Shown: piece after piece, positions 4,357 to 48,926 of the stretch | How the letters are laid out: every line of letters starts with the position of its first letter | How positions within the stretch are numbered: the stretch's first letter is position 1 | Assembly: GCA_027451505.1 (NCBI GenBank) | Contig: DAIDJD010000013.1 | Span: 1 to 54,629, forward strand | Reading direction: 5' to 3' | Source: a candidate division FCPU426 bacterium | Lineage (GTDB): Bacteria > Oederibacteriota > JAJYGY01 > DAIDJD01 | Length of the DNA: 54,629 bases | Notes under the pieces: generated by a model | Database searches by the model: none | What the model was told of the DNA's origin: nothing | Seen by the model: the letters and a program-made list of their open reading frames with translations, nothing else | Translations under genes and position numbers: made by a program

Positions 4357-4477
4357 CGCTTTGACCCATATGCACCAAGGGTTTTCCAAGAAAATTTCCC
4401 GCGACGCGTACAAATTTTTGAACCGAATGCGCTAATTTTCGAACTTCCCGTGTATTGGAATCACGCTTCCTTCCGGA

Positions 4478-7937: not shown

Positions 7938-9811
7938 CCTATCCCCGCGTACCCCAGCATGGTGGCGTTGCTGAAGGCCTGGATGTTGCTGGTGTCGGCG
8001 GCCCACTGGGCGCCGACGAACACGGAGAAGCCGCCCGGCAGCCCGCGGTCGAGTTCCAGGTCGGCGTAGCCCTGCTCGTCAAGGCGCCCGCCCGCGGGCA
8101 GGTTGGGCGGCGAGGCCGGCCACCAGAGGTAGGCCTGGGGGGTCCACACCCCGGTGAAGGACACGTAAAAGCCCTTGGGCAGCATCAGGCGCGCGTTGAT
8201 CGAGGCGAAGGCGTTGTCGTAGCCCCACATCGTGTCCCCGGGCCACACGGGCCGGGCCAGGCGGCCGCCCAGGATCAGTCCGAGCAGGTCGCCCCGACGC
8301 GACATCCAGGTGGCCCCCAGGGTGGGCAGAAGGCTGTTGTCGTCGTAGGGCGCGTAGGTGGGGAAGCGCTCGGCCAAGGCCTGGATCCCCAGGGAAAACG
8401 GCTGCATCCCCAGGACGCGGCCGTCGAGCTCGGTGCGCGCGGAGACGACTTCGTAGTTGGCGGGCGCGTTGTTCCAATGGATGAAGTTCTGGCGCACCCC
8501 GCCGTTGCCGTCCAGGAGGGCGCTCCAGCGCGGATTGAAGGTGTAGCGCACCAGGGCGTCCAGGCTGGAAAGGGGTTGCCCGACGTTGAGGGGCTGGCCC
8601 GGGTACTGGTAGGGAACGATGAACATGCCGTAGGACAAGGTCGCGGCCACGCGCTTGCCCAAGGCCAGTCCGTAGCTGAGGTTGAGTTCGTCCTGGCTTC
8701 CCAGGGAGCGGGTCCGCACAACGCCGGCGGCGGTGTCGCTCTGGTTCACCTGGGGCCCGGCCATGAGGCGCACCGAGCCGTGCAGGCCCATGCCGGCCTG
8801 GGCCGGTACCTGGCCCAGCTCGGACTGGGCCAGGAGGCCGAACCCTCCGGCCGGCCCCAGCGCCGCGAGCGAGGCCAGGGTGTCCCGGGCCGCGGCGGCC
8901 TGGCCGGTGCGCTGCTGGTATTTGGCCTTGAGGTAGAGCCCTCCGGGATGGCGTGGATCCAGGGCCAGGCAACGTTCCAGCGCCCGGAGCATGCCCGGCC
9001 CGTCTTTGAGGCGGTAGCGGGCCAGGGCCAGGCTATACCAGCAGTCCGGCGCCTCGGGCGAGACCGCGCAGGCCCCGCGGAAACAGGCCTCGGCCCGTTT
9101 GGCGTCCCCGCGCTTGAGCCAGGCGTTGCCCCAGGCGATGTCCCGGGCGGCCTCCGGTCCCGGCGTCTGGATCCCGGGCCGGGCCAGGACACGCGCCAGG
9201 GAGGCGTCCTGGGGATCCAGGGCGCGGGCCCGGGCCAGGGCCTTGCGCGCCTCCTGGTCGCGTCCCAGGCGCTCCAGGCAGATGGCTTCGCCCTTCCATC
9301 CCAGGGGGCTGCGCGGATCCTGCCGCACCGCGGCGCCGAAGGCGGCCAACGCATAGGTGACTTGGCCGGCCTGGAGGCCCTGCTCGCCCACGGCCAGGGC
9401 ATAGGGCTCCCCCAACCTGAGCAGCAGCGCGGCGCTGGCGTGGTCGCTGGGCGAACGCTCCAGCGCCGCCTCGGCCCAGCGCCGCGCGGAGCGGCGCCGG
9501 CCCAAGACAAAGGCGCACGCGGCCACCCCGTAGTAGGCGGCGCCTTCGCCGGGTTCGCATTGCGCGGCCAGGACAAAGGCCCGCATGGCTTGGACATAGG
9601 CGTGGCGCAGGTACCAGGCGCGCCCCTGGGCCAGGAAGTCTTGGGCGCAAGGCGTCGCGGCCCGCGCGCTGCCTGAGAACACCAAAACCACCAGCACCCA
9701 AAACCACAATCGTTTGTATTTTTTAAGATAAAGCTCGCGCGCGCTTCTGAACTCAAAATCCTTTAAAAAACGATTGTCTGTGGCCTGCGCACCGCTGGGA
9801 CTTCCTGGCAA
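7925..9811 (-). CDS. TPR-repeat protein with a predicted C-terminal outer-membrane beta-barrel
   Basis: The N-terminal ~300 aa hold multiple TPR-like helical pairs after a signal-like KKYKRLWFWVLVVLVFSGSARA. The C-terminal ~300 aa have an alternating-hydrophobic strand pattern rich in G/Y/W/N and end ...MLGYAGIGWGR. The start is uncertain: TTG at 9811 in the track, with no in-frame ATG before the signal peptide. Confidence 0.65.
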   Translation of the reverse strand: MPGSPSGAQATDNRFLKDFEFRSARELYLKKYKRLWFWVLVVLVFSGSARAATPCAQDFLAQGRAWYLRHAYVQAMRAFVLAAQCEPGEGAAYYGVAACAFVLGRRRSARRWAEAALERSPSDHASAALLLRLGEPYALAVGEQGLQAGQVTYALAAFGAAVRQDPRSPLGWKGEAICLERLGRDQEARKALARARALDPQDASLARVLARPGIQTPGPEAARDIAWGNAWLKRGDAKRAEACFRGACAVSPEAPDCWYSLALARYRLKDGPGMLRALERCLALDPRHPGGLYLKAKYQQRTGQAAAARDTLASLAALGPAGGFGLLAQSELGQVPAQAGMGLHGSVRLMAGPQVNQSDTAAGVVRTRSLGSQDELNLSYGLALGKRVAATLSYGMFIVPYQYPGQPLNVGQPLSSLDALVRYTFNPRWSALLDGNGGVRQNFIHWNNAPANYEVVSARTELDGRVLGMQPFSLGIQALAERFPTYAPYDDNSLLPTLGATWMSRRGDLLGLILGGRLARPVWPGDTMWGYDNAFASINARLMLPKGFYVSFTGVWTPQAYLWWPASPPNLPAGGRLDEQGYADLELDRGLPGGFSVFVGAQWAADTSNIQAFSNATMLGYAGIGWGR

Positions 9812-9915
9812 CCGCCACCTCGAGGGCCGTCTTGGTCCGTACCCAAGGATACCTAATTTTCAAAGCGAAAGCGGCGTGGCGCCAAAAAAAGATTCCCCCC
9901 AAGACTCTGCGCGGC

Positions 9916-9982
9916 GCCGCGGGGCGAGAAAGGCGCCTCGCCCCGCGGCCAGAGCCGGGGGCCGATCCGATCCGGCCCCCGG
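9916..9982 (-). terminator. Two GC-rich hairpins downstream of the AT-hook gene
   Basis: Hairpin 9955-9982 has a 10-bp stem (CCGGGGGCCG/CGGCCCCCGG). Hairpin 9916-9949 has a 13-bp stem (GCCGCGGGGCGAG/CTCGCCCCGCGGC). A T7 run follows on the minus strand but is ~20 nt away, so this is not a textbook terminator. Confidence 0.45.
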
Positions 9983-9992
9983 GACGCGACCC

Positions 9993-10373
9993 CTACCTCA
10001 AAAGTTTTTTCAACTCACGGGTGATGAGCTTGGGCAGCTTGGCTTTGAACGCGGCCACCGCATCCTTGGCGATGCGTCGGGCTTCGCGCTGCTTCACATA
10101 ACCCTTCAAAGGAACCGCGGAGGCCGAGACGCCTTTGGGGCGGCCGGATCCACGCTTCGCGGCACCCTCCTTCGTCGGCCGGGGTCCCTTGGGCCGTCCC
10201 GGCTTGTTCTTGGATCCCTTGGGCCGACCTGGCTTGTTCTTGGATCCCTTGGGCCGACCCGGCTTGTTCTTGGATCCCTTGGGCCGTCCCGGCCCGCGCT
10301 TGCCGCGGCCACGACGCGGGCGTTCGGCGCCGACTTCGTGCTTGGGAGTGATTTCCGTGGACATTTCCGCCAT
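9993..10373 (-). CDS. AT-hook repeat DNA-binding protein (HMGA-like GRPKGSKNK repeats)
   Basis: 126 aa; ATG at 10373 with AGGAG 6 nt upstream. Contains RGRGKRGPGRPKGSKNKPGRPKGSKNKPGRPKGSKNKPGRPKGPRP...GSGRPKG, which gives five GRP cores. Basic helical C-terminus. Confidence 0.75.
   Translation of the reverse strand: MAEMSTEITPKHEVGAERPRRGRGKRGPGRPKGSKNKPGRPKGSKNKPGRPKGSKNKPGRPKGPRPTKEGAAKRGSGRPKGVSASAVPLKGYVKQREARRIAKDAVAAFKAKLPKLITRELKKLLR
10186..10295 (-). repeat. Coding 30-nt tandem repeat (3 full copies plus a partial one)
   Basis: The unit cccttgggccgNccYggcttgttcttggat is visible directly. It encodes KPGRPKGSKN. Confidence 0.85.
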
Positions 10374-10637
10374 CGAATCTCCTGAAGATAATGGTTCCGT
10401 CTAGATTCTTGGGGCATCCAGCCCGCGCCGCAAGGGAAATTCGGAGGCGTCCCGGTTCATCCCGGGGTCGACCGGGCCCGGAACGCACCCGCCGAATTGC
10501 GGCGGCAAGTGTTTCTGCGGGGCGGGATGGGGCGCGGGGGTTGATAAAAGGGGGCGCCAAGCCCAAGATCGGAAGGTCCGGCCGCGCCCCAGCGGGCGCC
10601 GCGGACCTCGCGGACGGTTCCCACTCCAAGGTGCCCC

Positions 10638-11198
10638 ATGCAGATCAACAGCCTCATCCCCGACTTCAAGGCCATGGCCTTCCACAACGGCGAATTCAAG
10701 GCCGTGACCCGCGCCGACCTCAAGGGCAAGTGGACGGTGTTCTTCTTCTACCCCGCCGACTTCACCTTCGTCTGCCCCACCGAACTGGGCGACCTCGCCG
10801 ACCAATACCCGGCCCTGAAGGCCCTGGGCGTGGAGGTGCTTTCCGTGAGCACGGACACCCACTTCACCCACAAGGCTTGGCACGACGCCTCCGAGACCAT
10901 CCGCAAGATCCGCTTCCCGATGCTGGGCGACCCGACCGGGCACCTGAGCCGGTCCTTCGGCGTCCACATCGAGGAGGAGGGGCTGGCGTACCGCGGCACC
11001 TTCGTGGTCGACCCGGAGGGGCGCCTGAAGATCTCCGAGGTCCACGACAACGGCATAGGCCGCAACGCCGAGGAGCTGCTGCGCAAGGTCCAGGCCGCCC
11101 AGTACGTGGCGACCCACGACGGCGAGGTCTGCCCGGCCAAATGGAAGCCCGGCGCCAAGACGCTGCGGCCCGGCCTGGATTTGGTGGGCAAGATCTGA
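10638..11198 (+). CDS. ahpC: Alkyl hydroperoxide reductase subunit C (typical 2-Cys peroxiredoxin)
   Basis: 186 aa. Near-colinear with E. coli AhpC as I remember it ([24 protein letters not shown]...[12 protein letters not shown]...[11 protein letters not shown]...LDLVGKI). Confidence 0.95.
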
Positions 11199-13954: not shown

Positions 13955-15885
13955 GCCCCGGACCCCGGTCCGAAGCCGCCGTTGAGGACGGGCCAGCGGC
14001 ACCAGGTGCGCGGATCGACGCTGTGGTCGTCCAGGTGCAGGGACACCGCCAGGCGCTCGCGCTTCCACTGGGAGCCCGACCACAGCGCGTAGAAGGAGCG
14101 CGTCCACTCCGCGAGGTCGTCCCCGGGTTCGCCGGGGAAGTCGCCGCGCAGGGCCTCCAGCGCGCCCTCGGGGGGCAGGCGCCGGACCACGGCGGAGCGC
14201 TCCAGCGCGTCGAGCACCGCGTAGGGCATCAGGTCGTCCTCGTCGGTCTGGCGGTCCTCCAGGGGCCGCAGCTCGGCGGTGGGAGCCTGGTCGTTGACCG
14301 CCTTGAGGGCCGGGACCGGCCCCAACTCCCGCGGACCCCGCTCCTCCATCCACCGCAGCCAGCCCCTGAGGAAGTCCTTGCCCACCCCGGCCACCGGGGC
14401 CAGGCCGCCGCTGGTGTCACCGTCCATGGAGGTGTACCCCGTGGCCGCCTCGCTGCGGTTGTTCGTCGCCAGCAGAAGCCGGCCCTCGGCGTTGGCCAGG
14501 GTCCACACCGCGGGGGACCGCACCCGGGCCTGGAGGTTCTGCAGCGTGAGGTCGTCCTCGGGCCAGCCCAAGGGCCGCCCCAGGACGCCTTCGGCCAGGC
14601 TCCGGTAGGCGTCGACGAGGTGTTGCACCTCCACGGCGGCGTGGGCCGAGCCCACGGCGCGGGCCACCCCCTCGGCCGCGGACCGGGTCGTGGCCGAGGA
14701 GTGCGCCGTGGCTTGGTAGAGGGTGCGCAGCAGCACGGGCATGGCCGCGGCTTGGCCGCCGGCGGCCGCGATCCCGGGAACGTCCGGAAGCCGCGCGGCG
14801 AAGCCCTCGAAGCCGAGCTCGTCGACGGCGAAAGCGGCCATCAGCCGGACCAGCAGCGCGCAGGCGGCCGAGTCCGCGCCCCCGGAAAGGCTCAGGCAGA
14901 ACCCGCGGGCCCGGCTTTTGCGGAGGTAGTCGAAGATCCCCAGGGCCCCGGCCCGCGCGAAGTCCTCGCGCGGATCGGCAGCCTCGTGGGCGGCCGGGTC
15001 GCCCAGGGACGGCGGGGGGGGGGAGGCCGGCAGGGCCGGCGGGAAGGGGTCCCGCACCAGACCCGCACCCTCCACCGGGGCGGCGCGCCGGACTTCGACG
15101 TCGGCGCAGACCAGCCCCACGTCGCGGTAGCTGAAGCGCGCTCCGCGGGCCGCCACCGCCCCGTCCGGGTGGAGGAGGAAGGCGCCCCCGTCGTAGACCG
15201 CGCGCCCGCTTTCGTTGCCCATGAGGTTGGCGTAGGCGTAGGCCAAGCCGTGGTCCGCGGCCGCCCCGACCCCCAGGCCCAGACGGACCGCCTGCTTTCC
15301 CGGGGCGTAGTGGCTCGCCGCCGGGCCGAAGATGAGGTTGGCCCCGCGCCGGGCCAGGCGCGGGGCGGGCCTTTCCGGCCCGCCCCAGGCGTCCTCGCAG
15401 ATCTCGAAACCCAGCACGGCCCCGCCGCAGGCGAAGAGCAGGTCCCCCACGGGGACCTCGCGCCCCAGAACCTCCGCGCGCTCCACCCGGCCCGGCTCCC
15501 AGGCCCGGAACCAGCGCGGCTCGTAGTGGATGCCGTCCCGGGCCAGGCGCTGCTTGGGCACCAGGCCCAAAAGGCGGCCGTCCGCGCACACCGCGACCGT
15601 GTTGTAGAGCGCCCCCCCCAGCTCGAAGGGCAGCCCAAAGGCCGTGCACAGCCCCTGGGTGCGCCCCACCAGGACGCCCAGTTCGGCCAGGGCCCTCTCC
15701 CGCAGGAACGGGGCGAGGAAGAGGTCTTCGCAGCCGTAACCCGTGACGGCCAGTTCGGGAAGGCAGAGGTGGGAGACGCCCGCGGCCCGGGCGAGGTCGA
15801 GGGCCCGGGCGAGGTTCCCCCGGTTGGCGGCCCAGGCCAGCGGCGTCTGGTTCACGAACGCCGCGCCCAAGCGCACGGTGCTCAC
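13951..15885 (-). CDS. nadE: Glutamine-dependent NAD+ synthetase (CN-hydrolase domain + NAD synthetase domain)
   Basis: The GTG at 15885 overlaps the upstream stop (GTGA); 644 aa. The N-terminal nitrilase-like domain has LCLPELAVTGY and FEICEDAW. The C-terminal domain has the PP-loop LSLSGGADSA. The 1370-aa track ORF is an artefactual upstream extension. Confidence 0.9.
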   Translation of the reverse strand: MSTVRLGAAFVNQTPLAWAANRGNLARALDLARAAGVSHLCLPELAVTGYGCEDLFLAPFLRERALAELGVLVGRTQGLCTAFGLPFELGGALYNTVAVCADGRLLGLVPKQRLARDGIHYEPRWFRAWEPGRVERAEVLGREVPVGDLLFACGGAVLGFEICEDAWGGPERPAPRLARRGANLIFGPAASHYAPGKQAVRLGLGVGAAADHGLAYAYANLMGNESGRAVYDGGAFLLHPDGAVAARGARFSYRDVGLVCADVEVRRAAPVEGAGLVRDPFPPALPASPPPPSLGDPAAHEAADPREDFARAGALGIFDYLRKSRARGFCLSLSGGADSAACALLVRLMAAFAVDELGFEGFAARLPDVPGIAAAGGQAAAMPVLLRTLYQATAHSSATTRSAAEGVARAVGSAHAAVEVQHLVDAYRSLAEGVLGRPLGWPEDDLTLQNLQARVRSPAVWTLANAEGRLLLATNNRSEAATGYTSMDGDTSGGLAPVAGVGKDFLRGWLRWMEERGPRELGPVPALKAVNDQAPTAELRPLEDRQTDEDDLMPYAVLDALERSAVVRRLPPEGALEALRGDFPGEPGDDLAEWTRSFYALWSGSQWKRERLAVSLHLDDHSVDPRTWCRWPVLNGGFGPGSGA

Positions 15886-17324
15886 CCCAGCCCCACCAGG
15901 GAAAGGGAGGAGATGGTGTCCCCCATGCCCACCAGCGTCACCGGCTTGTCGATGAGGATGGTGGGCACCGCCACCACATGGAAGTCCGCGCAGGAGCCCA
16001 TGCCGGTCTCGGCCAGGGCGTCCAGCCCGTGGGCCGCGGCCAGGTGCGCGGCCAGGGCCTTCAACTCGGACAGGCTGTGCTCCGACACTTCGCGCCCGTG
16101 CGCCCACAGGAGGTTTTCGGCGCGGTCCAGGCTTCCGGTGCCGGCCTTGGCCGCCGCCACCGTGGCCGCGAAGGCCATGCCGTCGCGGTTGGCGCGGGGC
16201 TCGAACACCGGGCCCCGGGCGGCCTCGGCGGGCCGGATCAGGGTGATGTAAAGGCCGAACATGTGCAGTTGGACGCGCTTGAGCCCGAGCGCCTGGTAGA
16301 CCTTGAGGAGCCCCTTGAACAGGTTCACCGCGCCCAGGGACTGGCACTCGCGCGCCAGGGACTGCTCGCCCAGGACCTCGAGGATGCCGATGAGCTCCTG
16401 CTCGTTGCAGCCCACGCTGTCGGCGCGGGGGGCCAGGAAGCGGGCCAGCTCCTCGCGGATCTTCAGGTCCTGGGTGCTGGCGAACTCGAAATGGACCACC
16501 GCGCCGGGGTGGGCCTCCTTCCACCTTGAGACCCGGGCCCACGAGTCCGCGATGCGCGCCAGCCCGGAGCCGGGGGCGCCGCCCGTTAGCGGCTCGGTGA
16601 GCATCTGATAGCCGCTGAGCAGGATGAAGTCGAGGGGGTGCCCCGGCCGGGAAAGCGCCGCGTCGAAGGCGTCGTCCAGTTCCAGGCGGAAGTTGAGGGG
16701 GTCGTAGGTGGCGATGAAGCGGTTGCTCTTGGGGCAGGTGAGTTTCAGGCCGCCCAGCTCCAGCTCCGCGCCCTTGTCGAACTCGAGGATCCAATGGATG
16801 AGCGGGCGGTCGCCGGGCCTGTCCACGCCCCGGGCCGGGACCAGGGCCCCCGCGGAGTCCGTGCTGACCAAGCTGTCGTGGTCCAGGAAGAGGCCGGCCT
16901 GCTGGGCGGGCAGGCTGGCGCAGTGCACATAGACCCTGCGGGCGCCGGCCACGGCCAGGACATTGGCGATGATGCCCCCCTGGCCGCCCATCTGCAGGCG
17001 GTCGTAGCCCAGGCGTGCGGCCATCCAATCGAAAGTGGACTCGCGGGCCACCAGCCATTCCTGGGCCACGCCCTTGGAGAAGCACTCCACGAAGCCGCGC
17101 AGCAGGTCCACGGGTTCGTCGATGCGCCGGGCCCCCTTGTTGAGGACCTGCCATTCGTCCGCGCCCAGGTCGCCCATCCATTCCACCACCCGCCCCGGGG
17201 CCACCTTGAGCACGGCGTCGATGTTGGCGTTGAAGACGCTGGCCACCCCGGAGACGCGCCGGAAGCGCTCCAGGTGTCCGGGCACGTGGGCGTAATGTTC
17301 CTTCCAGGCGCGCTTGAGATCCAT
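15882..17324 (-). CDS. ADP-dependent sugar kinase (ADP-dependent glucokinase/phosphofructokinase family)
   Basis: 480 aa; ATG at 17324. Block-by-block match to Pyrococcus ADP-GK as I remember it: FNANIDAV, RLQMGGQGGIIANVL, VHFEFASTQDLKIREE...VGCNEQELIGILEVLGE, RVQLHMFGLYITL, and the C-terminal VGMGDTISSLSLVG. Confidence 0.85.
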   Translation of the reverse strand: MDLKRAWKEHYAHVPGHLERFRRVSGVASVFNANIDAVLKVAPGRVVEWMGDLGADEWQVLNKGARRIDEPVDLLRGFVECFSKGVAQEWLVARESTFDWMAARLGYDRLQMGGQGGIIANVLAVAGARRVYVHCASLPAQQAGLFLDHDSLVSTDSAGALVPARGVDRPGDRPLIHWILEFDKGAELELGGLKLTCPKSNRFIATYDPLNFRLELDDAFDAALSRPGHPLDFILLSGYQMLTEPLTGGAPGSGLARIADSWARVSRWKEAHPGAVVHFEFASTQDLKIREELARFLAPRADSVGCNEQELIGILEVLGEQSLARECQSLGAVNLFKGLLKVYQALGLKRVQLHMFGLYITLIRPAEAARGPVFEPRANRDGMAFAATVAAAKAGTGSLDRAENLLWAHGREVSEHSLSELKALAAHLAAAHGLDALAETGMGSCADFHVVAVPTILIDKPVTLVGMGDTISSLSLVGLG

Positions 17325-23843: not shown

Positions 23844-26528
23844 CTAGTCCTTCAACGGGCTTTTGCGCGGCTCGGCCAGCCCCAGCTCGCGCACCGCGCC
23901 GGCGACCTCGGCGGCGTCCACCTTTCCGCGGCGCTGGAGGGCGCGCAGGGCCTCCAGGACGATGTTCTCGGCGTCCACCTCGAAGAAGCGGCGCAGCTCC
24001 TCGCGGCCCTCGCTGCGGCCGAAACCGTCGGTGCCCAGGGCCGTGAAGTCGCGGATCCAGGGCTTCACCTGCTCGGCCACCAGCCGCACGTAGTCGCTGC
24101 TGGCCACCACGGGGTGCTCCAGGCCCTGCGCCACCTGGTGCAGGTAGCTGGAGCGGGGCGCCTCCCCTGGGTGCAGCCGGTTCCAGCGCTCGGCCTCGAG
24201 GGCCTCCCAGCGCAGGGTCTTGTAGCTGGTGGCGGACCAGACGTCGGACCCGATGCCGTACTTCTCGGCCAGGATCGCGGAGGCCCGCAGGGCCTCGCGG
24301 AAGATGGAGCCGGACCCGAAGAGGTGGACCCTCCCCCGTTCCTTGCCCTTGGCCTGGACCGTGGCGTAACGGTAGAGGCCCCGGCGTATCCCCTCCTCGC
24401 AGCCCTCGGGCTTGGCCGGATGCTCGTAGTTCTCGTTGCACAGGGTCAGGTAGTAGAAGATCTGCTCGTCCTCGGCGTACATGCGCCGCAGGCCGTCCTG
24501 GAGGATGACGGCGATCTCGTAGAGGTAGGCCGGGTCGTAGGCCACCAGGTTCGGCACGGCCGAGGCGGCCAAGTGGCTGTGGCCGTCCTCGTGCTGGAGC
24601 CCCTCGCCGTTGAGCGTGGTCCGGCCGGCCGTCCCGCCGAGCAGGAAGCCCTTCACGCGGCTGTCGGCGGCCTGCCAGATCTGGTCCCCCACCCGCTGGA
24701 AGCCGAACATCGAGTAGTAGATGTAGAACGGGATGGTGTTGACGCCGTAGACGCTGTAGGCGGTCCCCGCCGCCAGGAAGCTGGCCATGGCCCCGGCCTC
24801 GTTGATGCCCTCCTGCAGGATTTGGCCGTTGCGGGCCTCGCGGTAGTAGGCCACGTTGTCGGCGTCCACGGGGTCGTAGAGCTGGCCCTGGCTGGCGTAG
24901 ATCCCGATCTGGGAGAAGAGCGGGTCGAGTCCGAAGGTGCGGGCCTCGTCCGGGATGATGGGCACGATGAGCTTGCCGATGTCCCGGTTCTTCAGCAGTT
25001 TGGCCAGGACCATGTTGAAGGCCATCGTGGTGCTGACCGCACGGCCCTTGGACCCGGAGAAGAACTCCGCGAACTCCTCCAGCGCCGGCGTCTTGAGGCG
25101 CCCCGCCATGGGAAGGCGCTGCGGCACGGGGCCGCCCAAGGCCTCGCGGCGCGCGCGCAGGTACCGCATTTCGGGGCTGTCCTCGGCGGGCTTGTAGAAG
25201 GGCAGGATGGCCACCTGCTCGTCGGACAGGGGGATCGAGAAGCGGGTGCGGAATTCCTTGAGCTGCTCCTCGTTGAGCTTCTTGCTGTTGTGGGCCACGT
25301 TGCGCCCCTCGCCGGCCTCGCCGAGGCCGTACCCCTTGATGGTCTTGGCCAGGATGACCGTGGGGCGGCCGGTCTCGGCCGCGGCCGCGGCGTAAGCGGC
25401 GTAGACCTTCTCCGGGTCGTGGCCGCCCCGCTTGATCTTGTGGATCTGCTCATCGGAGAGGTGCTCGACGAGCTTGCGCAGCTTGGGGCTGTTGAAGAAA
25501 TGCTCCCGCACCTCGGCGCCCTTGGCCACGGTGTACTTCTGGTACTGCCCGTCGACCACCTCGCCCATGCGCGCCACCAGCTCGCCGTCGTCGGCCGCCA
25601 GGATGGGGTCCCATTCGCCGCCCCAGATCACCTTGATCACGTTCCAACCGGCGCCGCGGAAGATGCGCTCGAGCTCCTGGATGATCTTCCCGTTGCCCCG
25701 CACCGGGCCGTCCAGGCGCTGCAGGTTGCAGTTGACCACCCACACCAAGTTGTCGAGGCGCTCGCGGACCGCGAGGTTGATCGCCCCCAAGGTCTCGGGC
25801 TCGTCGCTCTCGCCGTCGCCCACGAAGCTCCACACCTTCTCGCCGCCGGGCTGCTTGAGGCCCCGGTGCTCGAGGTAGCGCATGAAACGCGCCTGGTAGA
25901 TGCTGGAGATGGGGCCCAGCCCCATGCTCACCGTGGGGAACTGCCAGAATTCCGGCATGAGCCAAGGGTGCGGGTAGCTGCTCAGGCCCGGCGTCGCCTT
26001 GAGCTCGCGCCGGAAGTTGACGAGATGCTCCTCACCGAGGCGCCCCTCCAGGAAGGCGCGCGCGTAGATGCCGGGGGCGGCGTGCCCCTGGTAGTAGACG
26101 ATGTCCCCGGCGAAGCCCTTGGCGCGGTCCGGAGCCCTGAAGAAATGGTTGAATCCGATCTCGTAGAGGGTCGCCGAGCTGGCGAAGGTGCCGATGTGCC
26201 CGCCCGGAGCCGCGGGCTCGTGGTTCGCCCGGACGACCATCGCCATGGCGTTCCAGCGCACCGCGTTCTTGATGCGGCGCTCGAGCTCGCGGTCGCCCGG
26301 GAACGCGGTCTGCTTCTCCAGCGGGATGGTGTTGATGTAGGGGGTGTTGGCCGTGAAGGGCATGTGGATGCCCTCCTTGAAGGCCCGTTCCTGGAGATAG
26401 GCCAGGATGAGCCCGGCCCTCTCGGCGCCATAGCGCGCCTTGAGGTCGGCCAACGAATCGACCCATTCGCTGATCTCCTGCTGGTCCACGGAGGGGTCTT
26501 CGCTCAGCGTCCGAAGTATCTCGCCCAT
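23844..26528 (-). CDS. aceE: Pyruvate dehydrogenase E1 component, homodimeric type
   Basis: ATG at 26528 with GAGGAA upstream; 894 aa. Colinear with AceE-type E1 (GGHIGTFASSATLYEIGFNHFF, GDGESDEPE...). The track start at 26756 is over-extended. Confidence 0.92.
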   Translation of the reverse strand: MGEILRTLSEDPSVDQQEISEWVDSLADLKARYGAERAGLILAYLQERAFKEGIHMPFTANTPYINTIPLEKQTAFPGDRELERRIKNAVRWNAMAMVVRANHEPAAPGGHIGTFASSATLYEIGFNHFFRAPDRAKGFAGDIVYYQGHAAPGIYARAFLEGRLGEEHLVNFRRELKATPGLSSYPHPWLMPEFWQFPTVSMGLGPISSIYQARFMRYLEHRGLKQPGGEKVWSFVGDGESDEPETLGAINLAVRERLDNLVWVVNCNLQRLDGPVRGNGKIIQELERIFRGAGWNVIKVIWGGEWDPILAADDGELVARMGEVVDGQYQKYTVAKGAEVREHFFNSPKLRKLVEHLSDEQIHKIKRGGHDPEKVYAAYAAAAAETGRPTVILAKTIKGYGLGEAGEGRNVAHNSKKLNEEQLKEFRTRFSIPLSDEQVAILPFYKPAEDSPEMRYLRARREALGGPVPQRLPMAGRLKTPALEEFAEFFSGSKGRAVSTTMAFNMVLAKLLKNRDIGKLIVPIIPDEARTFGLDPLFSQIGIYASQGQLYDPVDADNVAYYREARNGQILQEGINEAGAMASFLAAGTAYSVYGVNTIPFYIYYSMFGFQRVGDQIWQAADSRVKGFLLGGTAGRTTLNGEGLQHEDGHSHLAASAVPNLVAYDPAYLYEIAVILQDGLRRMYAEDEQIFYYLTLCNENYEHPAKPEGCEEGIRRGLYRYATVQAKGKERGRVHLFGSGSIFREALRASAILAEKYGIGSDVWSATSYKTLRWEALEAERWNRLHPGEAPRSSYLHQVAQGLEHPVVASSDYVRLVAEQVKPWIRDFTALGTDGFGRSEGREELRRFFEVDAENIVLEALRALQRRGKVDAAEVAGAVRELGLAEPRKSPLKD

Positions 26529-26662
26529 GATTCCTCGCCGTCGCGGGACAGATGCCGCCTTCCCGGGAGGCCGCGGGCGGCTCCGGGAGTCCCAAAAGAA
26601 CATCATTTCAAGGATTTTTCGTCGCACCGGGCGGTCTCGGACCGGGCCCGGTGCAGCCCCAA

Positions 26663-26691
26663 ATTGTACCTTACCAGGGGGCCCTTGACCA
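26663..26691 (-). promoter_or_regulatory. Candidate sigma-70 promoter for aceE (TGGTCA-17 nt-TACAAT)
   Basis: Read on the minus strand. It sits ~135 nt upstream of the aceE ATG and just downstream of the preceding terminator. This is a hexamer match only. Confidence 0.35.
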
Positions 26692-26709
26692 CCCCCGTAG
26701 GCCCCCCAC

Positions 26710-26740
26710 AAAAAAACGGGGTCCCCCTTGGGGGACCCCG
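26710..26740 (-). terminator. Rho-independent terminator of the SpoVG-like gene
   Basis: On the minus strand, CGGGGTCCCCC-aa-GGGGGACCCCG is followed directly by T7. Confidence 0.8.
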
Positions 26741-26790
26741 CATGTCTGAACACCACCCATGGGGTCAGTACTCGTAGATTTTCGGATTCT

Positions 26791-46685: not shown

Positions 46686-47330
46686 TCAGGCCTTGGCCGA
46701 CGGGTCCTTGACCAGGCGCAGGTAGGGCTTCACCACCTTGACCCCCCCGGGAAAGCGCCTCTGGATCTCGGCCTCGTCCTTGAGCGCGGGGACGATGATG
46801 ACGTCCTCGCCCTTCCTCCAGTTCACGGGCGTGGCGACCTTGTGCTGCTGGGTGAGCTGGAGGCTGTCGATCACCCGCAGGATCTCGTCGAAGTTCCTGC
46901 CCGTGCTGGCGGGATAGGTGATGATGGCCTTGACCTTCTTGTCGGGCCCGATGAAGAAGACGCTGCGCACCGTGGTCTTGTCGTCGGCGTTGGGGTGGAT
47001 CATGTCGTAGAGGGCGGCCACTTTGCGGTCCGGGTCCGCCAGGACGGGGAAGTTCACGGCCGTGCCCTGGGTCTCGGCGATGTCCGGGAGCCAGCCGTCG
47101 TGGCTCCGGCGGTCGTCCACGCTCAGGGCCAGGACCTTGACGTCGCGCTTGTCGAATTCCGGCTTCAGGCGCGCGGTGACGCCCAGCTCCGTGGTGCACA
47201 CCGGGGTGAAGTCGGCGGGGTGTGAGAACAGCAGCCCCCAGCTTTGGCCCAGGTATTCATGGAAGCGGATGCGTCCTTGGGTGGAATCCTGCTCGAAATC
47301 GGGGGCGATGTCCCCGAGGCGAAGCGCCAT
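46686..47330 (-). CDS. 1-Cys peroxiredoxin (Prx6 subfamily)
   Basis: ATG at 47330 with GGAGG 6 nt upstream; 214 aa. [13 protein letters not shown]…[20 protein letters not shown]. Confidence 0.9.
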
Positions 47331-47394
47331 GGCGACCTCCGGATCTTGGATGGCGGGGGCGTCCGCCGACGAAGGACCGTAGCTGTGTCCTTGC

Positions 47395-47513
47395 ACTAAT
47401 CTACGATATTTTTAAATATAAGTTTACTAAAAAAGTATGATTACTTTTAATTTTTATTTATTACCCAGTTGTACCAAGAAAATCCAATTTAAAATAAAAA
47501 TATTGTATTTTTG
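47395..47513 (-). promoter_or_regulatory. Extreme AT-rich island between tyrS and the prx-cys operon (probable promoter/regulatory region)
   Basis: By my count there are 20 G/C in the 120 nt 47401-47520, inside ~70% GC DNA. Several -35/-10-like hexamers occur on the minus strand (for example TTGGAT-17 nt-GTAATA). Contains the small dyad ATATTT-tt-AAATAT at 47406-47419. The exact promoter is not resolved. Confidence 0.4.
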
Positions 47514-48851
47514 TTAATTTATGGATTTGCTTTCAAACCGAAGGTATTGGCGCTTGCCTACCTTCACCACCTTGCCGGCCAAGTCTTCCGATGGCCGCAG
47601 AAGGGCCGCTTCCTCCATGGGGACATAGGCCTCCCCCTCCAGCACCTGGATCCCCTTCTGCTGGATGAGGCGGCGCACTTGGCTCGCGCTCTCGCCCGTG
47701 GCCGCGCGCAGCGCGTCCAGCACTTTGACCCCGGCTTCCAGACGCAGGGACCGGGTGTCGTCGGGCACCAGCACCTTGCGGGCGCCGAACTTCTGGTCAA
47801 AGGCCTCCTCGGCGTCGCGCGCGGCGGAGCGCTCACCGCGCGCGAAGAGCGTCGTGACCACCCTCGCCAGAAGGCGCTTGGCGTCCTTGGGATGGACGTC
47901 CCCGCGCTCGGCCGCGGCCCGTAGCTCCGCCAGCTCACCCGACCGGATCTCGGTGAGCTCGCGGTACCAGATCCACATCACCTCGTCGGGCACCGACAGC
48001 ACCTTGGCGTAGTGCTCGGCCGGGTCCGCCGCCACGGGGATGTGGTTGGCCCCGGTCTTGGACATCTTCTTGAGGCGGCCCTGGGCGTCGCGCTCCCCGG
48101 TCGTGCCGGGCAGCAGGTCGAAGCACACGAAGCTCTCAGGCCGCTGCCCGGCGGCCTCCATCATGCCCCGGCAAATGTGGAAATTCAGGAACTGGTCGAT
48201 GCCGCCGACCTCCACGTCGGTGCGCAGGGTCACCGAGTCGTAGCCCATCAGGAGCGGGTATTCCGCCTCGGCCAGGCTCAGGGCCGCCCCCGCATCCAGG
48301 CGCCGGCGGAAGTCCTCGCGCTGCAGAAGGGAGCCCATGCCGATCCCCCGCGTGACCTTGAGCCAGTCCGAGAGGGAAAGCTTGCCCAGCCAGGAGCTGT
48401 TGTAATGGACCGTCACCTGGGGGGAGGCCAGGTCCAGGACGCGGGCCGCTTGCCCCGTGAAGACCCCCGCGTTGGCCCGGACCTGAGCCTCGTCCAGCGC
48501 CGGGCGCTCCTCGACCCGGCCGCTGGGATCGCCCACCATGGCCGTGAAATCCCCGAAGATGAGGTCGAGCCGATGGCCCATGCGCAGGATGCGGCGCAGG
48601 TTGACCAGGGGAATGGCATGGCCCAGATGGATGGACGCGGCGGTGGCGTCGATGCCGAGCTTGAAGCGCAGCGGCCGCCCTTGGGCGCGGCTCTCCTTGA
48701 GGCGCTCCAGGAGGCCGGAGGGCGTGACGATGCTCTCCCCGGACCCGGCCTTCTCCCGGATCAGGTCGAACTGCTCCTGGGGCGAAAGGCCGGAAAGGTC
48801 GGGAAGGGGCGCCAGGAGGCGCTCCTCAAGGGCGGCGAGATCGAAGGCCAT
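47514..48851 (-). CDS. tyrS: Tyrosyl-tRNA synthetase
   Basis: ATG at 48851; 445 aa. HIGH motif (SIHLGHAIPL), KMSKS motif (KKMSKTG) and a C-terminal S4-like domain. Confidence 0.88.
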   Translation of the reverse strand: MAFDLAALEERLLAPLPDLSGLSPQEQFDLIREKAGSGESIVTPSGLLERLKESRAQGRPLRFKLGIDATAASIHLGHAIPLVNLRRILRMGHRLDLIFGDFTAMVGDPSGRVEERPALDEAQVRANAGVFTGQAARVLDLASPQVTVHYNSSWLGKLSLSDWLKVTRGIGMGSLLQREDFRRRLDAGAALSLAEAEYPLLMGYDSVTLRTDVEVGGIDQFLNFHICRGMMEAAGQRPESFVCFDLLPGTTGERDAQGRLKKMSKTGANHIPVAADPAEHYAKVLSVPDEVMWIWYRELTEIRSGELAELRAAAERGDVHPKDAKRLLARVVTTLFARGERSAARDAEEAFDQKFGARKVLVPDDTRSLRLEAGVKVLDALRAATGESASQVRRLIQQKGIQVLEGEAYVPMEEAALLRPSEDLAGKVVKVGKRQYLRFESKSIN

Positions 48852-48926
48852 GGGGGTCCGTATCGGCAAGGGTCGGGGAAGCACTTTGCCCAAGGCGCGG
48901 CGAAAACGCAAGGCCGGGGCGGCGGA

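Follow-up and report, generated by a model that had tools for sequence, protein, structure and literature searches.

A five-hook gene in a GC-rich window

The window, by which we mean the whole 54,629-nt stretch of DNA analysed, has a GC content of 71.3%. Its source is an uncultured, very GC-rich, mine-drainage bacterium, whose PDH E1 reaches only ~63% identity, to many phyla, and whose TyrRS is 70% identical to that of an unclassified soil MAG and 52% identical to that of candidate division FCPU426; its placement near that division is tentative. On the minus strand lies a gene for a small, strongly basic protein (23 K, 17 R; pI ~11.9) with five AT-hooks (Table 1). The translation is identical to the 126-aa protein proposed in the original prediction, and the gene diverges from ahpC as proposed there, across a spacer of 264 bp in which a consensus scan found no sigma-70-like promoter. 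Directly past the stop codon are two perfect inverted repeats (arms 9955-9964/9973-9982 and 9916-9928/9937-9949), the region of which folds as RNA at -77.7 kcal/mol (z = -2.1); no U-run adjoins them, a U7 run following later at 9884-9890, and we regard them as candidate 3'-end or terminator structures. AT tracts had been described as scarce and conspicuous here, and those named in the original prediction exist (Table 1); they are scarce and clustered within a window of 71% GC, runs of at least six W number 40 against ~22 expected, and the brnTA islet has a GC content of 57%.

Table 1. Features of the hook gene and its surroundings in the window.
Feature	Position	Strand	Basis and remarks
AT-hook protein CDS, 126 aa	9993..10373	(-)	ORF list and translation; ATG 10373-10371, stop TAG 9995-9993
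Shine-Dalgarno AGGAG	10379..10383	(-)	5 nt spacer before ATG; direct sequence reading
N-terminal segment, residues 1-24 (MAEMSTEITPKHEVGAERPRRGRG)	10302..10373	(-)	predicted disordered, AF2 pLDDT 50-52; alignment A1
AT-hook array, residues 25-81	10131..10301	(-)	translation; predicted disordered, AF2 pLDDT 54-63
GRPKG cores	10275-10289, 10245-10259, 10215-10229, 10185-10199, 10131-10145	(-)	translation
30-nt in-frame tandem repeat coding for hooks	10185..10293	.	TRF: 3.6 copies, 94% matches, no indels
Family-defining C-terminal module, residues 90-126 (KGYVKQREARRIAKDAVAAFKAKLPKLITRELKKLLR)	9996..10106	(-)	alignments A1, A2; AF2; profile
Two perfect GC-rich inverted repeats, candidate 3'-end/terminator structures	9916..9982	(-)	repeat search
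Intergenic region common to hook gene and divergent ahpC, 264 bp	10374..10637	.	ORFs and Pfam
ahpC (PF00578)	10638-11198	+	ORF and Pfam; divergent from hook gene
AT-rich tract, 73% AT	47375-47556
AT-rich tracts, 56-60% AT	9683-9789, 4358-4472, 908-998

The open reading frame at 9993-10373 is a real gene. One might suspect it of having arisen by chance, in GC-rich DNA that carries a 30-nt tandem repeat, as long spurious ORFs overlap it in other frames and its GC3 is just 0.75 vs ~0.9 in neighbouring genes, but this reading is extremely improbable and is effectively refuted by a protein-level family whose start and C-terminus are invariant across DNA of widely differing GC content, by the Shine-Dalgarno sequence upstream of the ATG, and by mostly synonymous strain variation (of 10 differences listed for a diverged strain contig over 9992-10139, eight fall at third codon positions and nine are synonymous). 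Since M1-A2 is invariant across the family (alignment A1), the annotated ATG is also supported as the start. The codon adaptation of the gene, 0.512, is the minimum of the window (range 0.589-0.845) and suggests a mobile accessory gene, the codon-usage signal being inflated because the repeat duplicates the same rare Gly codons. Three metatranscriptomes from the same study yielded no contig over the gene, an uninformative absence given that the organism has only ~4-5x DNA depth.

Three of the five hooks reproduce HMGA hook 2 except for one arginine

AT-hooks are generally seen as a eukaryotic chromatin device. They are defined by a GRP core with flanking K/R and often a proximal Pro (PMC11354804), and type-I hooks by a Gly-Ser-Lys-Asn-Lys extension after the core (PMC4209074). 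The GRP tripeptide of this definition (SMART SM00384 / Pfam PF02178) is present five times in the window protein (residues 29, 39, 49, 59 and 77), each time within a GRPKG core (residues 29-33, 39-43, 49-53, 59-63 and 77-81) and with basic flanks and Pro: KRGP-GRP-KGSKNK, NKP-GRP-KGSKNK (twice), NKP-GRP-KGPRP and KRGS-GRP-KGV. Units 1-3, (G/K)PGRPKGSKNK, contain the exact GRPKGSKNK and hence the type-I GSKNK extension, while unit 4 (KPGRPKG, then PRPT) keeps the core only and unit 5 (GSGRPKGV) is an isolated core; thus, of the four near-perfect tandem units plus a fifth core originally described, the five cores stand but the fourth unit does not extend beyond its core. Hooks 1-4 are spaced 10 residues apart and, as anticipated, are encoded by a DNA repeat with a period of 30 nt, units 1-3 of which differ solely at synonymous third positions (GGA/GGT, CCG/CCA); an X1 contig covers 9919-10388, repeat included, without indels. 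Pfam AT_hook gave no match at E <= 10, nor did it for control bacterial proteins with RGRPKGSKNK, which argues that the scan does not report this 13-residue model. A PDB search with the hook region alone also returned no matches, probably through bias filtering.

The GRPKGSKNK of hooks 1-3 is identical at 9/9 residues to AT-hook 2 of mammalian HMGA1/HMGA2, the hook sequences of which are printed as KRPRGRPKGSKNKGAA for HMGA1 (PMC11947522) and KRPRGRPKGSKNKSP for HMGA2 (PMC13192832). The equation of this motif with an HMGA hook in the original prediction is exact for the 9-mer but fails at the residue before it: the HMGA proteins have R-G-R-P and the window protein P/S-G-R-P, the palindromic R-G-R core being absent from all five hooks and the pre-Gly residue being P in four and S in one. 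As one of the two groove-inserting HMGA arginines is missing, AT selectivity could be weak. RGRP hooks do occur in some family members (GKRGRPKGSKNK in P0003, P0008 and P0014).

In its general build the window protein resembles HMGA1/HMGA2 (~100 aa): it is small, very basic, predicted to be disordered and multi-hook, with five hooks in 126 aa rather than the three of HMGA, at a comparable spacing of 10-18 residues. A polar/basic module following hook 2 of HMGA1 raises its affinity (PMC11354804), and hooks 1-3 carry this type of extension. A highly acidic flanking region, a hallmark of HMGA (PMC2919716), is lacking in the window protein, which has only four Glu in residues 1-17 and a strongly basic C-terminus; also unlike HMGA, it ends in a conserved basic helix predicted to be amphipathic. 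Outside the hook motif, PDB sequence searches revealed no homology to HMGA or any other chromatin protein.

The missing arginine also bears on whether DNA is the ligand at all. AT-hooks, and extended ones especially, bind RNA, at times better than DNA (PMC11354804), and in CarD the HMGA-like domain and an H1-like domain can stand in for each other functionally (PMC2919716), so that the protein might have an RNA preference like that of extended hooks or act as a histone-H1-like counter-ion without AT specificity. A weak compositional likeness to ribosomal protein eL29 points the same way. We nevertheless consider an RNA or unspecific polyanion binder very unlikely, because nine residues in each of three hooks are exactly those of the DNA-binding type-I/HMGA hook 2 form, the layout differs from that of eAT-hooks, whose basic patches sit ~12 residues away, and no RNA-related neighbours recur. 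The eL29 matches (E 0.014-0.028) are below significance and, together with Piwi matches, were all that the full-length protein retrieved from the PDB by sequence (all at E >= 0.014); both were rejected as compositional and low-complexity.

A C-terminal module defines a very rare family

Residues 1-94 are predicted to be disordered (AF2 pLDDT 50-63). The N-terminal segment is weakly acidic at its start (family consensus MAExxKExxAKEAA), and in the relative P0007 AF2 places a low-confidence helix at 5-21. The C-terminal module that follows the hooks comprises ~37 aa and is amphipathic as well as basic and predicted to be helical, the last two as the original prediction had held: AF2 models helices at 95-112 and 115-125 with pLDDT 83-91 over residues 95-125, and both are amphipathic, with hydrophobic moments of 0.53 and 0.79. 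Residues K90, G91, A98, R100, K110, A111, P114, L121, K123, L124 and L125 are invariant (A1, A2). The predicted fold is not robust and varies among AF2 models, from a hairpin in the window protein (P0001) to a single helix in P0007. These models are compatible with self-association through one or two amphipathic helices.

The window protein is one of ~20 sequences, in 1.84 billion representatives, of a family that is very rare and has no name. When 1.84e9 representatives were searched with the C-terminal profile, 14 proteins came up at E <= 1e-3; 12 were judged genuine, and the window protein was the top match (E = 5e-19). The KGYVK...LKKLL module is invariably located at the extreme C-terminus, after one to five GRP hooks, in proteins of 78-176 aa, and the window protein conforms to the family definition of a ~37-aa C-terminal module preceded by at least one GRP hook. 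No families were detected in Pfam, NCBIfam and PHROGs scans of the window protein and four relatives, the C-terminal profile gave noise only against the PDB, and a Foldseek search of the AF2 model against the PDB gave nothing at E < 6. The module was absent from 185,579 GTDB species representatives, from IMG/VR, and from PLSDB plasmids and INPHARED phages (tblastn), and JGI metagenome contigs added none beyond those already known. Two Planctomycetia loci (L005, L036) were rejected as members, being different proteins with hooks alone in common.

All relatives are bacterial or metagenomic, on contigs of 45-47%, 57-64% and 68-71% GC. Hook number, whose variation had been proposed for examination, ranges from one to five within the family. 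Its scattered occurrence and apparent mobility set the family apart from H-NS and Lsr2, which are core genes throughout their lineages.

Neighbourhoods differ from member to member

Gene neighbourhoods are not conserved in the family. The divergent pairing with ahpC was absent from every other member's locus examined, and, since no other member has a peroxiredoxin neighbour, any functional tie to ahpC or to oxidative stress was rejected as unsupported. One member locus has SEFIR-TIR, Fic, DUF3800 and integrase neighbours, another SIR2_2, an N6_N4 methyltransferase and an integrase, and further loci, one each, AbiTii, DUF5615, ISL3 and IS21 transposases, and a group II intron RT. When two island-borne loci were compared for a common backbone, DNA similarity ended at the gene.

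Defence, toxin or transposon genes adjoin the family gene in 5/9 informative contexts, which raises the possibility that the protein is a local regulator or accessory of mobile and defence islands, tethered by its hooks to the AT-rich control regions of the element, its own promoter included, and governing how adjacent cargo is expressed or maintained instead of acting across the genome; on this view the window copy would be a stranded remnant, in line with its poor codon adaptation. At two loci the family gene lies 78-79 bp downstream of a same-strand neighbour (the SEFIR-TIR gene and a 152-aa ORF after SIR2_2), and a dense AT-rich palindromic cluster is located directly upstream of the P0004 gene on a 64% GC contig, both consistent with such a role. 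We consider it unlikely, however, since the partner genes are different at each locus, which argues against a defined system, the window and P0007 copies lie among housekeeping genes with no adjoining mobile or defence gene, and neither PHROG matches nor occurrences in IMG/VR, PLSDB or INPHARED were found.

GRPKGSKNK hooks are widespread in bacteria

CarD and its orthologue were termed the only prokaryotic HMGA-like proteins in 2010 (PMC2919716), and in the bacterial literature searched hooks appear only as the C-terminal domain of CarD and, singly, on WhiB7 and SufR. The statement in the original prediction that few bacterial examples exist no longer holds: of 51 hook-bearing loci in GTDB species from many phyla, 39 contain GRPKGSKNK as an exact 9-mer. 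These KRGPGRPKGSKNK hooks are located at protein termini, often in two to five tandem copies, and their carriers include DDE_Tnp_1 transposases, AAA_15/AAA_21 ATPases, proteins with a HARE-HTH-like domain and small stand-alone proteins. They share the hook sequence of the window protein but not its C-terminal module, as none of these other hook-bearing proteins contains KGYVK...LKKLL.

A described parallel in architecture is Myxococcus xanthus CarD, likewise from a high-GC bacterium and likewise combining several canonical hooks with a second, non-hook module. CarD consists of a 179-aa N-terminal CarD_CdnL_TRCF domain that binds RNAP and CarG, an acidic region, and four C-terminal hooks that serve DNA binding (PMC2919716). 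The window protein, in contrast, has no acidic block and the order is reversed, hooks first and then helix; CarD_CdnL_TRCF (PF02559) is absent from it, as is any Pfam/NCBIfam family at E <= 10. Canonical hooks in a high-GC bacterium are also a feature of the actinobacterial WhiB7/SufR-like regulators, in which the hook reads AT-rich promoter DNA through the minor groove (PMC3905903 for WhiB7; bioRxiv 10.64898/2025.12.26.696629 for SufR). There, a folded Fe-S or HTH domain bears a single hook, and the protein acts at specific promoters with a sigma factor or as a repressor, whereas the window protein has five hooks and lacks any folded domain for DNA binding or sensing. These precedents favour the targeting of AT islands put forward in the original prediction, but the 45-71% GC range of family contigs weighs against it.

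A putative multivalent AT-tract binder

H-NS, Lsr2, MvaT and Rok read DNA through Q/RGR 'AT-hook-like' loops in folded domains or an 'AT-pincer', and carry N-terminal oligomerisation domains. The window protein would resemble them in its proposed logic, an AT minor-groove reader joined to a helical module that may self-associate, and in occasional carriage on genomic islands. The original prediction of a xenogeneic-silencer-like factor extends this likeness: oligomers formed through the C-terminal helix would coat or bridge AT-rich foreign DNA and AT-rich promoters and repress them, making the protein a functional analogue of H-NS, Lsr2, MvaT and Rok with inverted domain order. The AT-reading motifs and candidate oligomerisation helix fit this reading, as do the AT islands of the window, namely the brnTA islet and intergenic tracts. 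H-NS-type proteins are reported often to reside on islands and plasmids as 'stealth' silencers (PMC7074111), and members inside defence/integrase islands fit such carriage.

We nonetheless consider the silencer reading, one of several, unlikely. Known silencers are abundant core genes of their own lineages, whereas this family is sporadic and has no member among the GTDB species representatives searched; members on 45-47% GC contigs reside where AT tracts are not distinctive; and Pfam, NCBIfam, PDB sequence and profile, and Foldseek searches gave no homology to H-NS, Lsr2, MvaT or Rok. Of the original argument, then, the GRP-core type-I hooks, the basic helical C-terminus and the scarce AT tracts stand, but its GC rationale does not apply family-wide, the hooks lack the first Arg of R-G-R, and neighbourhoods are not conserved. 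An extended version, in which the family is a hitherto unrecognised fifth kind of bacterial chromatin or xenogeneic-silencing protein, is quite unlikely in our estimation. Such a protein would join genuine eukaryote-type hooks, in place of a folded 'AT-hook-like' domain, to a short oligomerising helix, would spread horizontally on defence and integrative islands as a 'stealth' silencer that any host could acquire, and would have its hook number tuned to host genome composition by slippage of the 30-nt repeat.

The interpretation that we favour, with moderate confidence, is that the window protein is an HMGA-like multivalent binder of AT-tract minor grooves, acting as an accessory nucleoid-associated or architectural protein; the scarcity and clustering of AT tracts in a 71% GC window make such binding a natural inference. 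As a small, strongly basic protein that is predicted to be disordered, it would act in the manner of eukaryotic HMGA, and the GSKNK extension of three hooks would boost affinity as in HMGA1 hook 2. Because hooks 1-4 are 10 residues apart, several could bind simultaneously to a single long AT tract or to adjacent ones, and this would confer avidity for AT-rich regions, intergenic and promoter DNA among them. The role of the conserved C-terminal helix, whether hairpin or kinked, is probably to let the protein self-associate or dock onto a partner or surface; what would otherwise be a monovalent reader could thereby bridge DNA or act architecturally. All of these properties, from AT-tract binding and multivalency to self-association and a possible effect on transcription, are conjectural, and the protein would be a horizontally mobile accessory nucleoid-associated protein rather than a lineage-wide core silencer.

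The great rarity of the family and its confinement to uncultured organisms limit its importance. The window protein, which stands alone, is about the size of HMGA and combines five hooks with a conserved tail of its own, nevertheless indicates that bacteria also make stand-alone hook proteins, and the scatter of the exact HMGA hook 2 across transposases, ATPases and small proteins in many phyla points to this hook as a DNA tether that is common and portable in bacteria. Should the family turn out to be AT-selective and bridging, it would represent a new class of nucleoid-associated protein or silencer and offer a simple model for the tuning of avidity by hook number.

A gene encoding five AT-hooks

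The hook gene is a minus-strand ORF of 126 codons with an ATG start and a TAG stop, and its product (MAEMSTEITPKHEVGAERPRRGRGKRGPGRPKGSKNKPGRPKGSKNKPGRPKGSKNKPGRPKGPRPTKEGAAKRGSGRPKGVSASAVPLKGYVKQREARRIAKDAVAAFKAKLPKLITRELKKLLR; 17 Arg, 23 Lys, pI 11.9) carries the five GRPKG cores originally predicted, at residues 29, 39, 49, 59 and 77. That prediction described four near-perfect tandem units and a fifth core; the 30-nt period (3.6 copies, 94% matches, no indels; Tandem Repeats Finder) and the isolated fifth core stand, but the GSKNK continuation is confined to hooks 1–3, hook 4 being KPGRPKG alone. All differences among units 1–3 are synonymous third positions, and the array has therefore been recently expanded or homogenised.

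This ORF is a real gene, a spurious origin being effectively excluded. A Shine-Dalgarno-like AGGAG lies 5 nt 5' of the ATG, and Met1-Ala2 and the final residues are invariant in the alignment of homologues, which at the protein level come from contigs of 45% to 71% GC, so that their similarity is not explicable by common nucleotide composition. Where a mine-drainage metagenome contig of a diverged strain overlaps the gene, eight of the ten listed differences from the window fall at third codon positions and nine are synonymous, the sole nonsynonymous change being Q95K; a second contig covers the entire gene without indels, and repeat number is therefore identical. Beyond the hairpins downstream of the stop, a T-run follows only after ~25 nt, with none nearer.

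Features of the window and surroundings of family members
Feature	Position	Strand	Details
BrnT toxin (PF04365)/CopG-type antitoxin (PF12441) pair	384–918	−	Islet GC 57%
Inverted repeats	9916–9982		Two, perfect and GC-rich, 13-bp and 10-bp stems; directly 3' of hook-gene stop
Strain-contig overlap with hook gene	9992–10139
Hook gene	9993–10373	−	Flanked by TPR/sigma-54 two-component cluster and ahpC-methyltransferase
30-nt repeat	10185–10293
ahpC (PF00578)	10638–11198		Divergent from hook gene
ADP-dependent phosphofructokinase/glucokinase family gene	15882–17324	−	PF04587, E 1e-67
PDH E1	23844–26756	−
Second peroxiredoxin gene	46686–47396	−
AT island	47375–47556		182 bp, 73% AT; W-runs of 16, 19 and 19 nt
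TyrRS(-like) gene	47514–48911	−	Stop at 47514
A/T-run cluster upstream of P0004 (family member)	L141 2679–2834		Contig GC 64%
P0007 (family member) neighbours			che, GDT1, ICMT, OmdA genes
Family locus neighbours			SEFIR-TIR, Fic, DUF3800, integrase
Family locus neighbours			SIR2_2, N6_N4 methyltransferase, integrase
Family locus neighbour			AbiTii
Family locus neighbour			DUF5615
Family locus neighbours			ISL3 transposase, IS21 transposase, Imm5-like gene
Family locus neighbour			Group II intron RT

Relation to HMGA and to other bacterial hooks

All five motifs satisfy the published AT-hook definition (GRP core, K/R on the flanks, often a proximal P; PMC11354804); hooks bearing the GSKNK extension are termed 'type-I' (PMC4209074). 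In line with the original prediction, GRPKGSKNK recurs letter-for-letter in hook 2 of HMGA1 (KRPRGRPKGSKNKGAA; PMC11947522) and of HMGA2 (PMC13192832), the higher affinity of which is attributed to polar/basic residues after the hook (PMC11354804). One difference is of consequence: in HMGA the hook core is a palindromic R-G-R whose two arginines both enter the groove (PMC11354804, PMC4209074), whereas the hook protein has Pro or Ser in place of the first Arg. A Pfam scan returned no AT_hook match for the hook protein, but it also missed the textbook RGRPKGSKNK hooks of bacterial control proteins, so that it counts neither for nor against the assignment.

The premise that bacterial AT-hooks are few reflects older literature (PMC2919716) and is outdated at the sequence level: a scan for KRGPGRPKG in a single genome of each GTDB species confirmed 51 loci, spread over Proteobacteria, Firmicutes, Bacteroidota, Myxococcota, Planctomycetota, Desulfobacterota, Actinomycetota and others, 39 with exact GRPKGSKNK. 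Among the carriers are DDE_Tnp_1 transposases, AAA_15/AAA_21 ATPases, a HARE-HTH-like protein and small stand-alone peptides. On the transposases and ATPases (loci L001, L003, L033 and others) GRPKGSKNK hooks are C-terminal and often repeated (GRPKGSKNKKTLEREA), in hosts including Sutterella, Desulfovibrio, Anaerobiospirillum, Lachnospiraceae and Myxococcota genomes. Bacterial mobile-element proteins seem commonly to use AT-hooks as a portable tether to DNA.

A rare family with a conserved C-terminal module

A word-indexed search across 5.8 billion clusters yielded nine relatives judged genuine (98–154 aa), all annotated 'hypothetical protein [bacterium]', which share a short MAExxKE... N-terminus, hooks in variable number and a C-terminal module (consensus KGYVKxxEAKRIAKxAVxxFKAKLPxLIRKELKKLL). 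When 1.84 billion representatives were searched without prefilter, a profile built from the final 45 residues matched just 14 proteins at E ≤ 1e-3, 12 of which look genuine; in every genuine match the module is the extreme C-terminus, after 1–5 GRP hooks. It was absent from all 51 hook-bearing GTDB loci, from a dedicated scan of GTDB, and from IMG/VR, PLSDB and INPHARED; the family is therefore very rare and uncharacterised.

AlphaFold2, given the family alignment, predicted residues 1–94 at pLDDT 50–63, read as disordered, and helices at 95–112 and 115–125 (pLDDT 83–91) broken at invariant Pro114; for the relative P0007 it predicted a single continuous C-terminal helix instead. The basic helical C-terminus of the original prediction recurs in the models, where the only robust feature is a helical stretch of ~30 residues, basic and amphipathic. 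Its hydrophobic moments come to 0.53 and 0.79, and 1.7% of shuffles reach the higher value. Because so small an amphipathic element could not bury its hydrophobic face alone, it may self-associate, or else dock to a partner or membrane. Neither fold nor sequence of the hook protein or its module had a match in the PDB.

Genomic setting and mobility

Gene neighbourhoods of family members are not conserved, several have island-type neighbours, DNA similarity between two island-borne loci is confined to the hook gene itself, and codon adaptation of the hook gene (0.512, a signal inflated by the repeat) is the lowest among 33 window genes (range 0.589–0.845) and on par with brnT (0.510); together these suggest a mobile accessory gene. 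That it acts as a local regulator of the island that carries it is a reading we consider unlikely. One metagenome (JGI sample 3300050821) yields four members (P0003, P0008, P0014 and P0016; L052/L053/L143, L054/L142) adjoining differing defence-type genes: SEFIR-TIR, SIR2_2, AbiTii, Fic and DUF3800. Directly 5' of P0004 lie eight A/T runs of at least 6 nt, including the palindrome ATATTTTTAAAAATAT, possibly a candidate autoregulatory target.

The window occurs in mine-drainage metagenomes at ~4–5x depth. Against GTDB species representatives its PDH E1 reaches at most 63% identity, to many phyla, whereas its TyrRS shares 70% identity with a soil MAG that is unclassified and 52% with a MAG of candidate division FCPU426, values that point to a poorly sampled deep lineage, tentatively placed near candidate division FCPU426, the nearest named one. 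The ADP-dependent phosphofructokinase/glucokinase family encoded in the window is mostly archaeal and unusual in a bacterium.

Proposed function

The original prediction envisaged a xenogeneic silencer aimed at AT-rich tracts. Those tracts and the brnTA islet exist in this 71.3% GC window, the AT island being the strongest and the only place with 16–19-nt W-runs; it lies between the TyrRS-like stop and the start of the second peroxiredoxin gene, and the final TyrRS-like codons extend into it. The multi-AT-hook gene is real and the original interpretation finds partial support, but a silencer role is weakened by members in 45–47% GC contigs, by the family's sporadic distribution and by the hypothetical nature of the oligomerisation it would need; we regard such a role as unlikely. 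Binding of RNA or of polyanions non-specifically seems more improbable still.

We lean towards an HMGA-like protein whose hooks would bind the minor groove of A/T tracts multivalently, hooks 1–4, spaced 10 residues, perhaps filling one long AT tract or adjoining tracts, while the C-terminal helix would contribute self-association or docking; the protein would be accessory, either nucleoid-associated or architectural. Its functional roles are all inferred; what is new here is a stand-alone multi-AT-hook protein from a bacterium, with a conserved tail that is itself novel.
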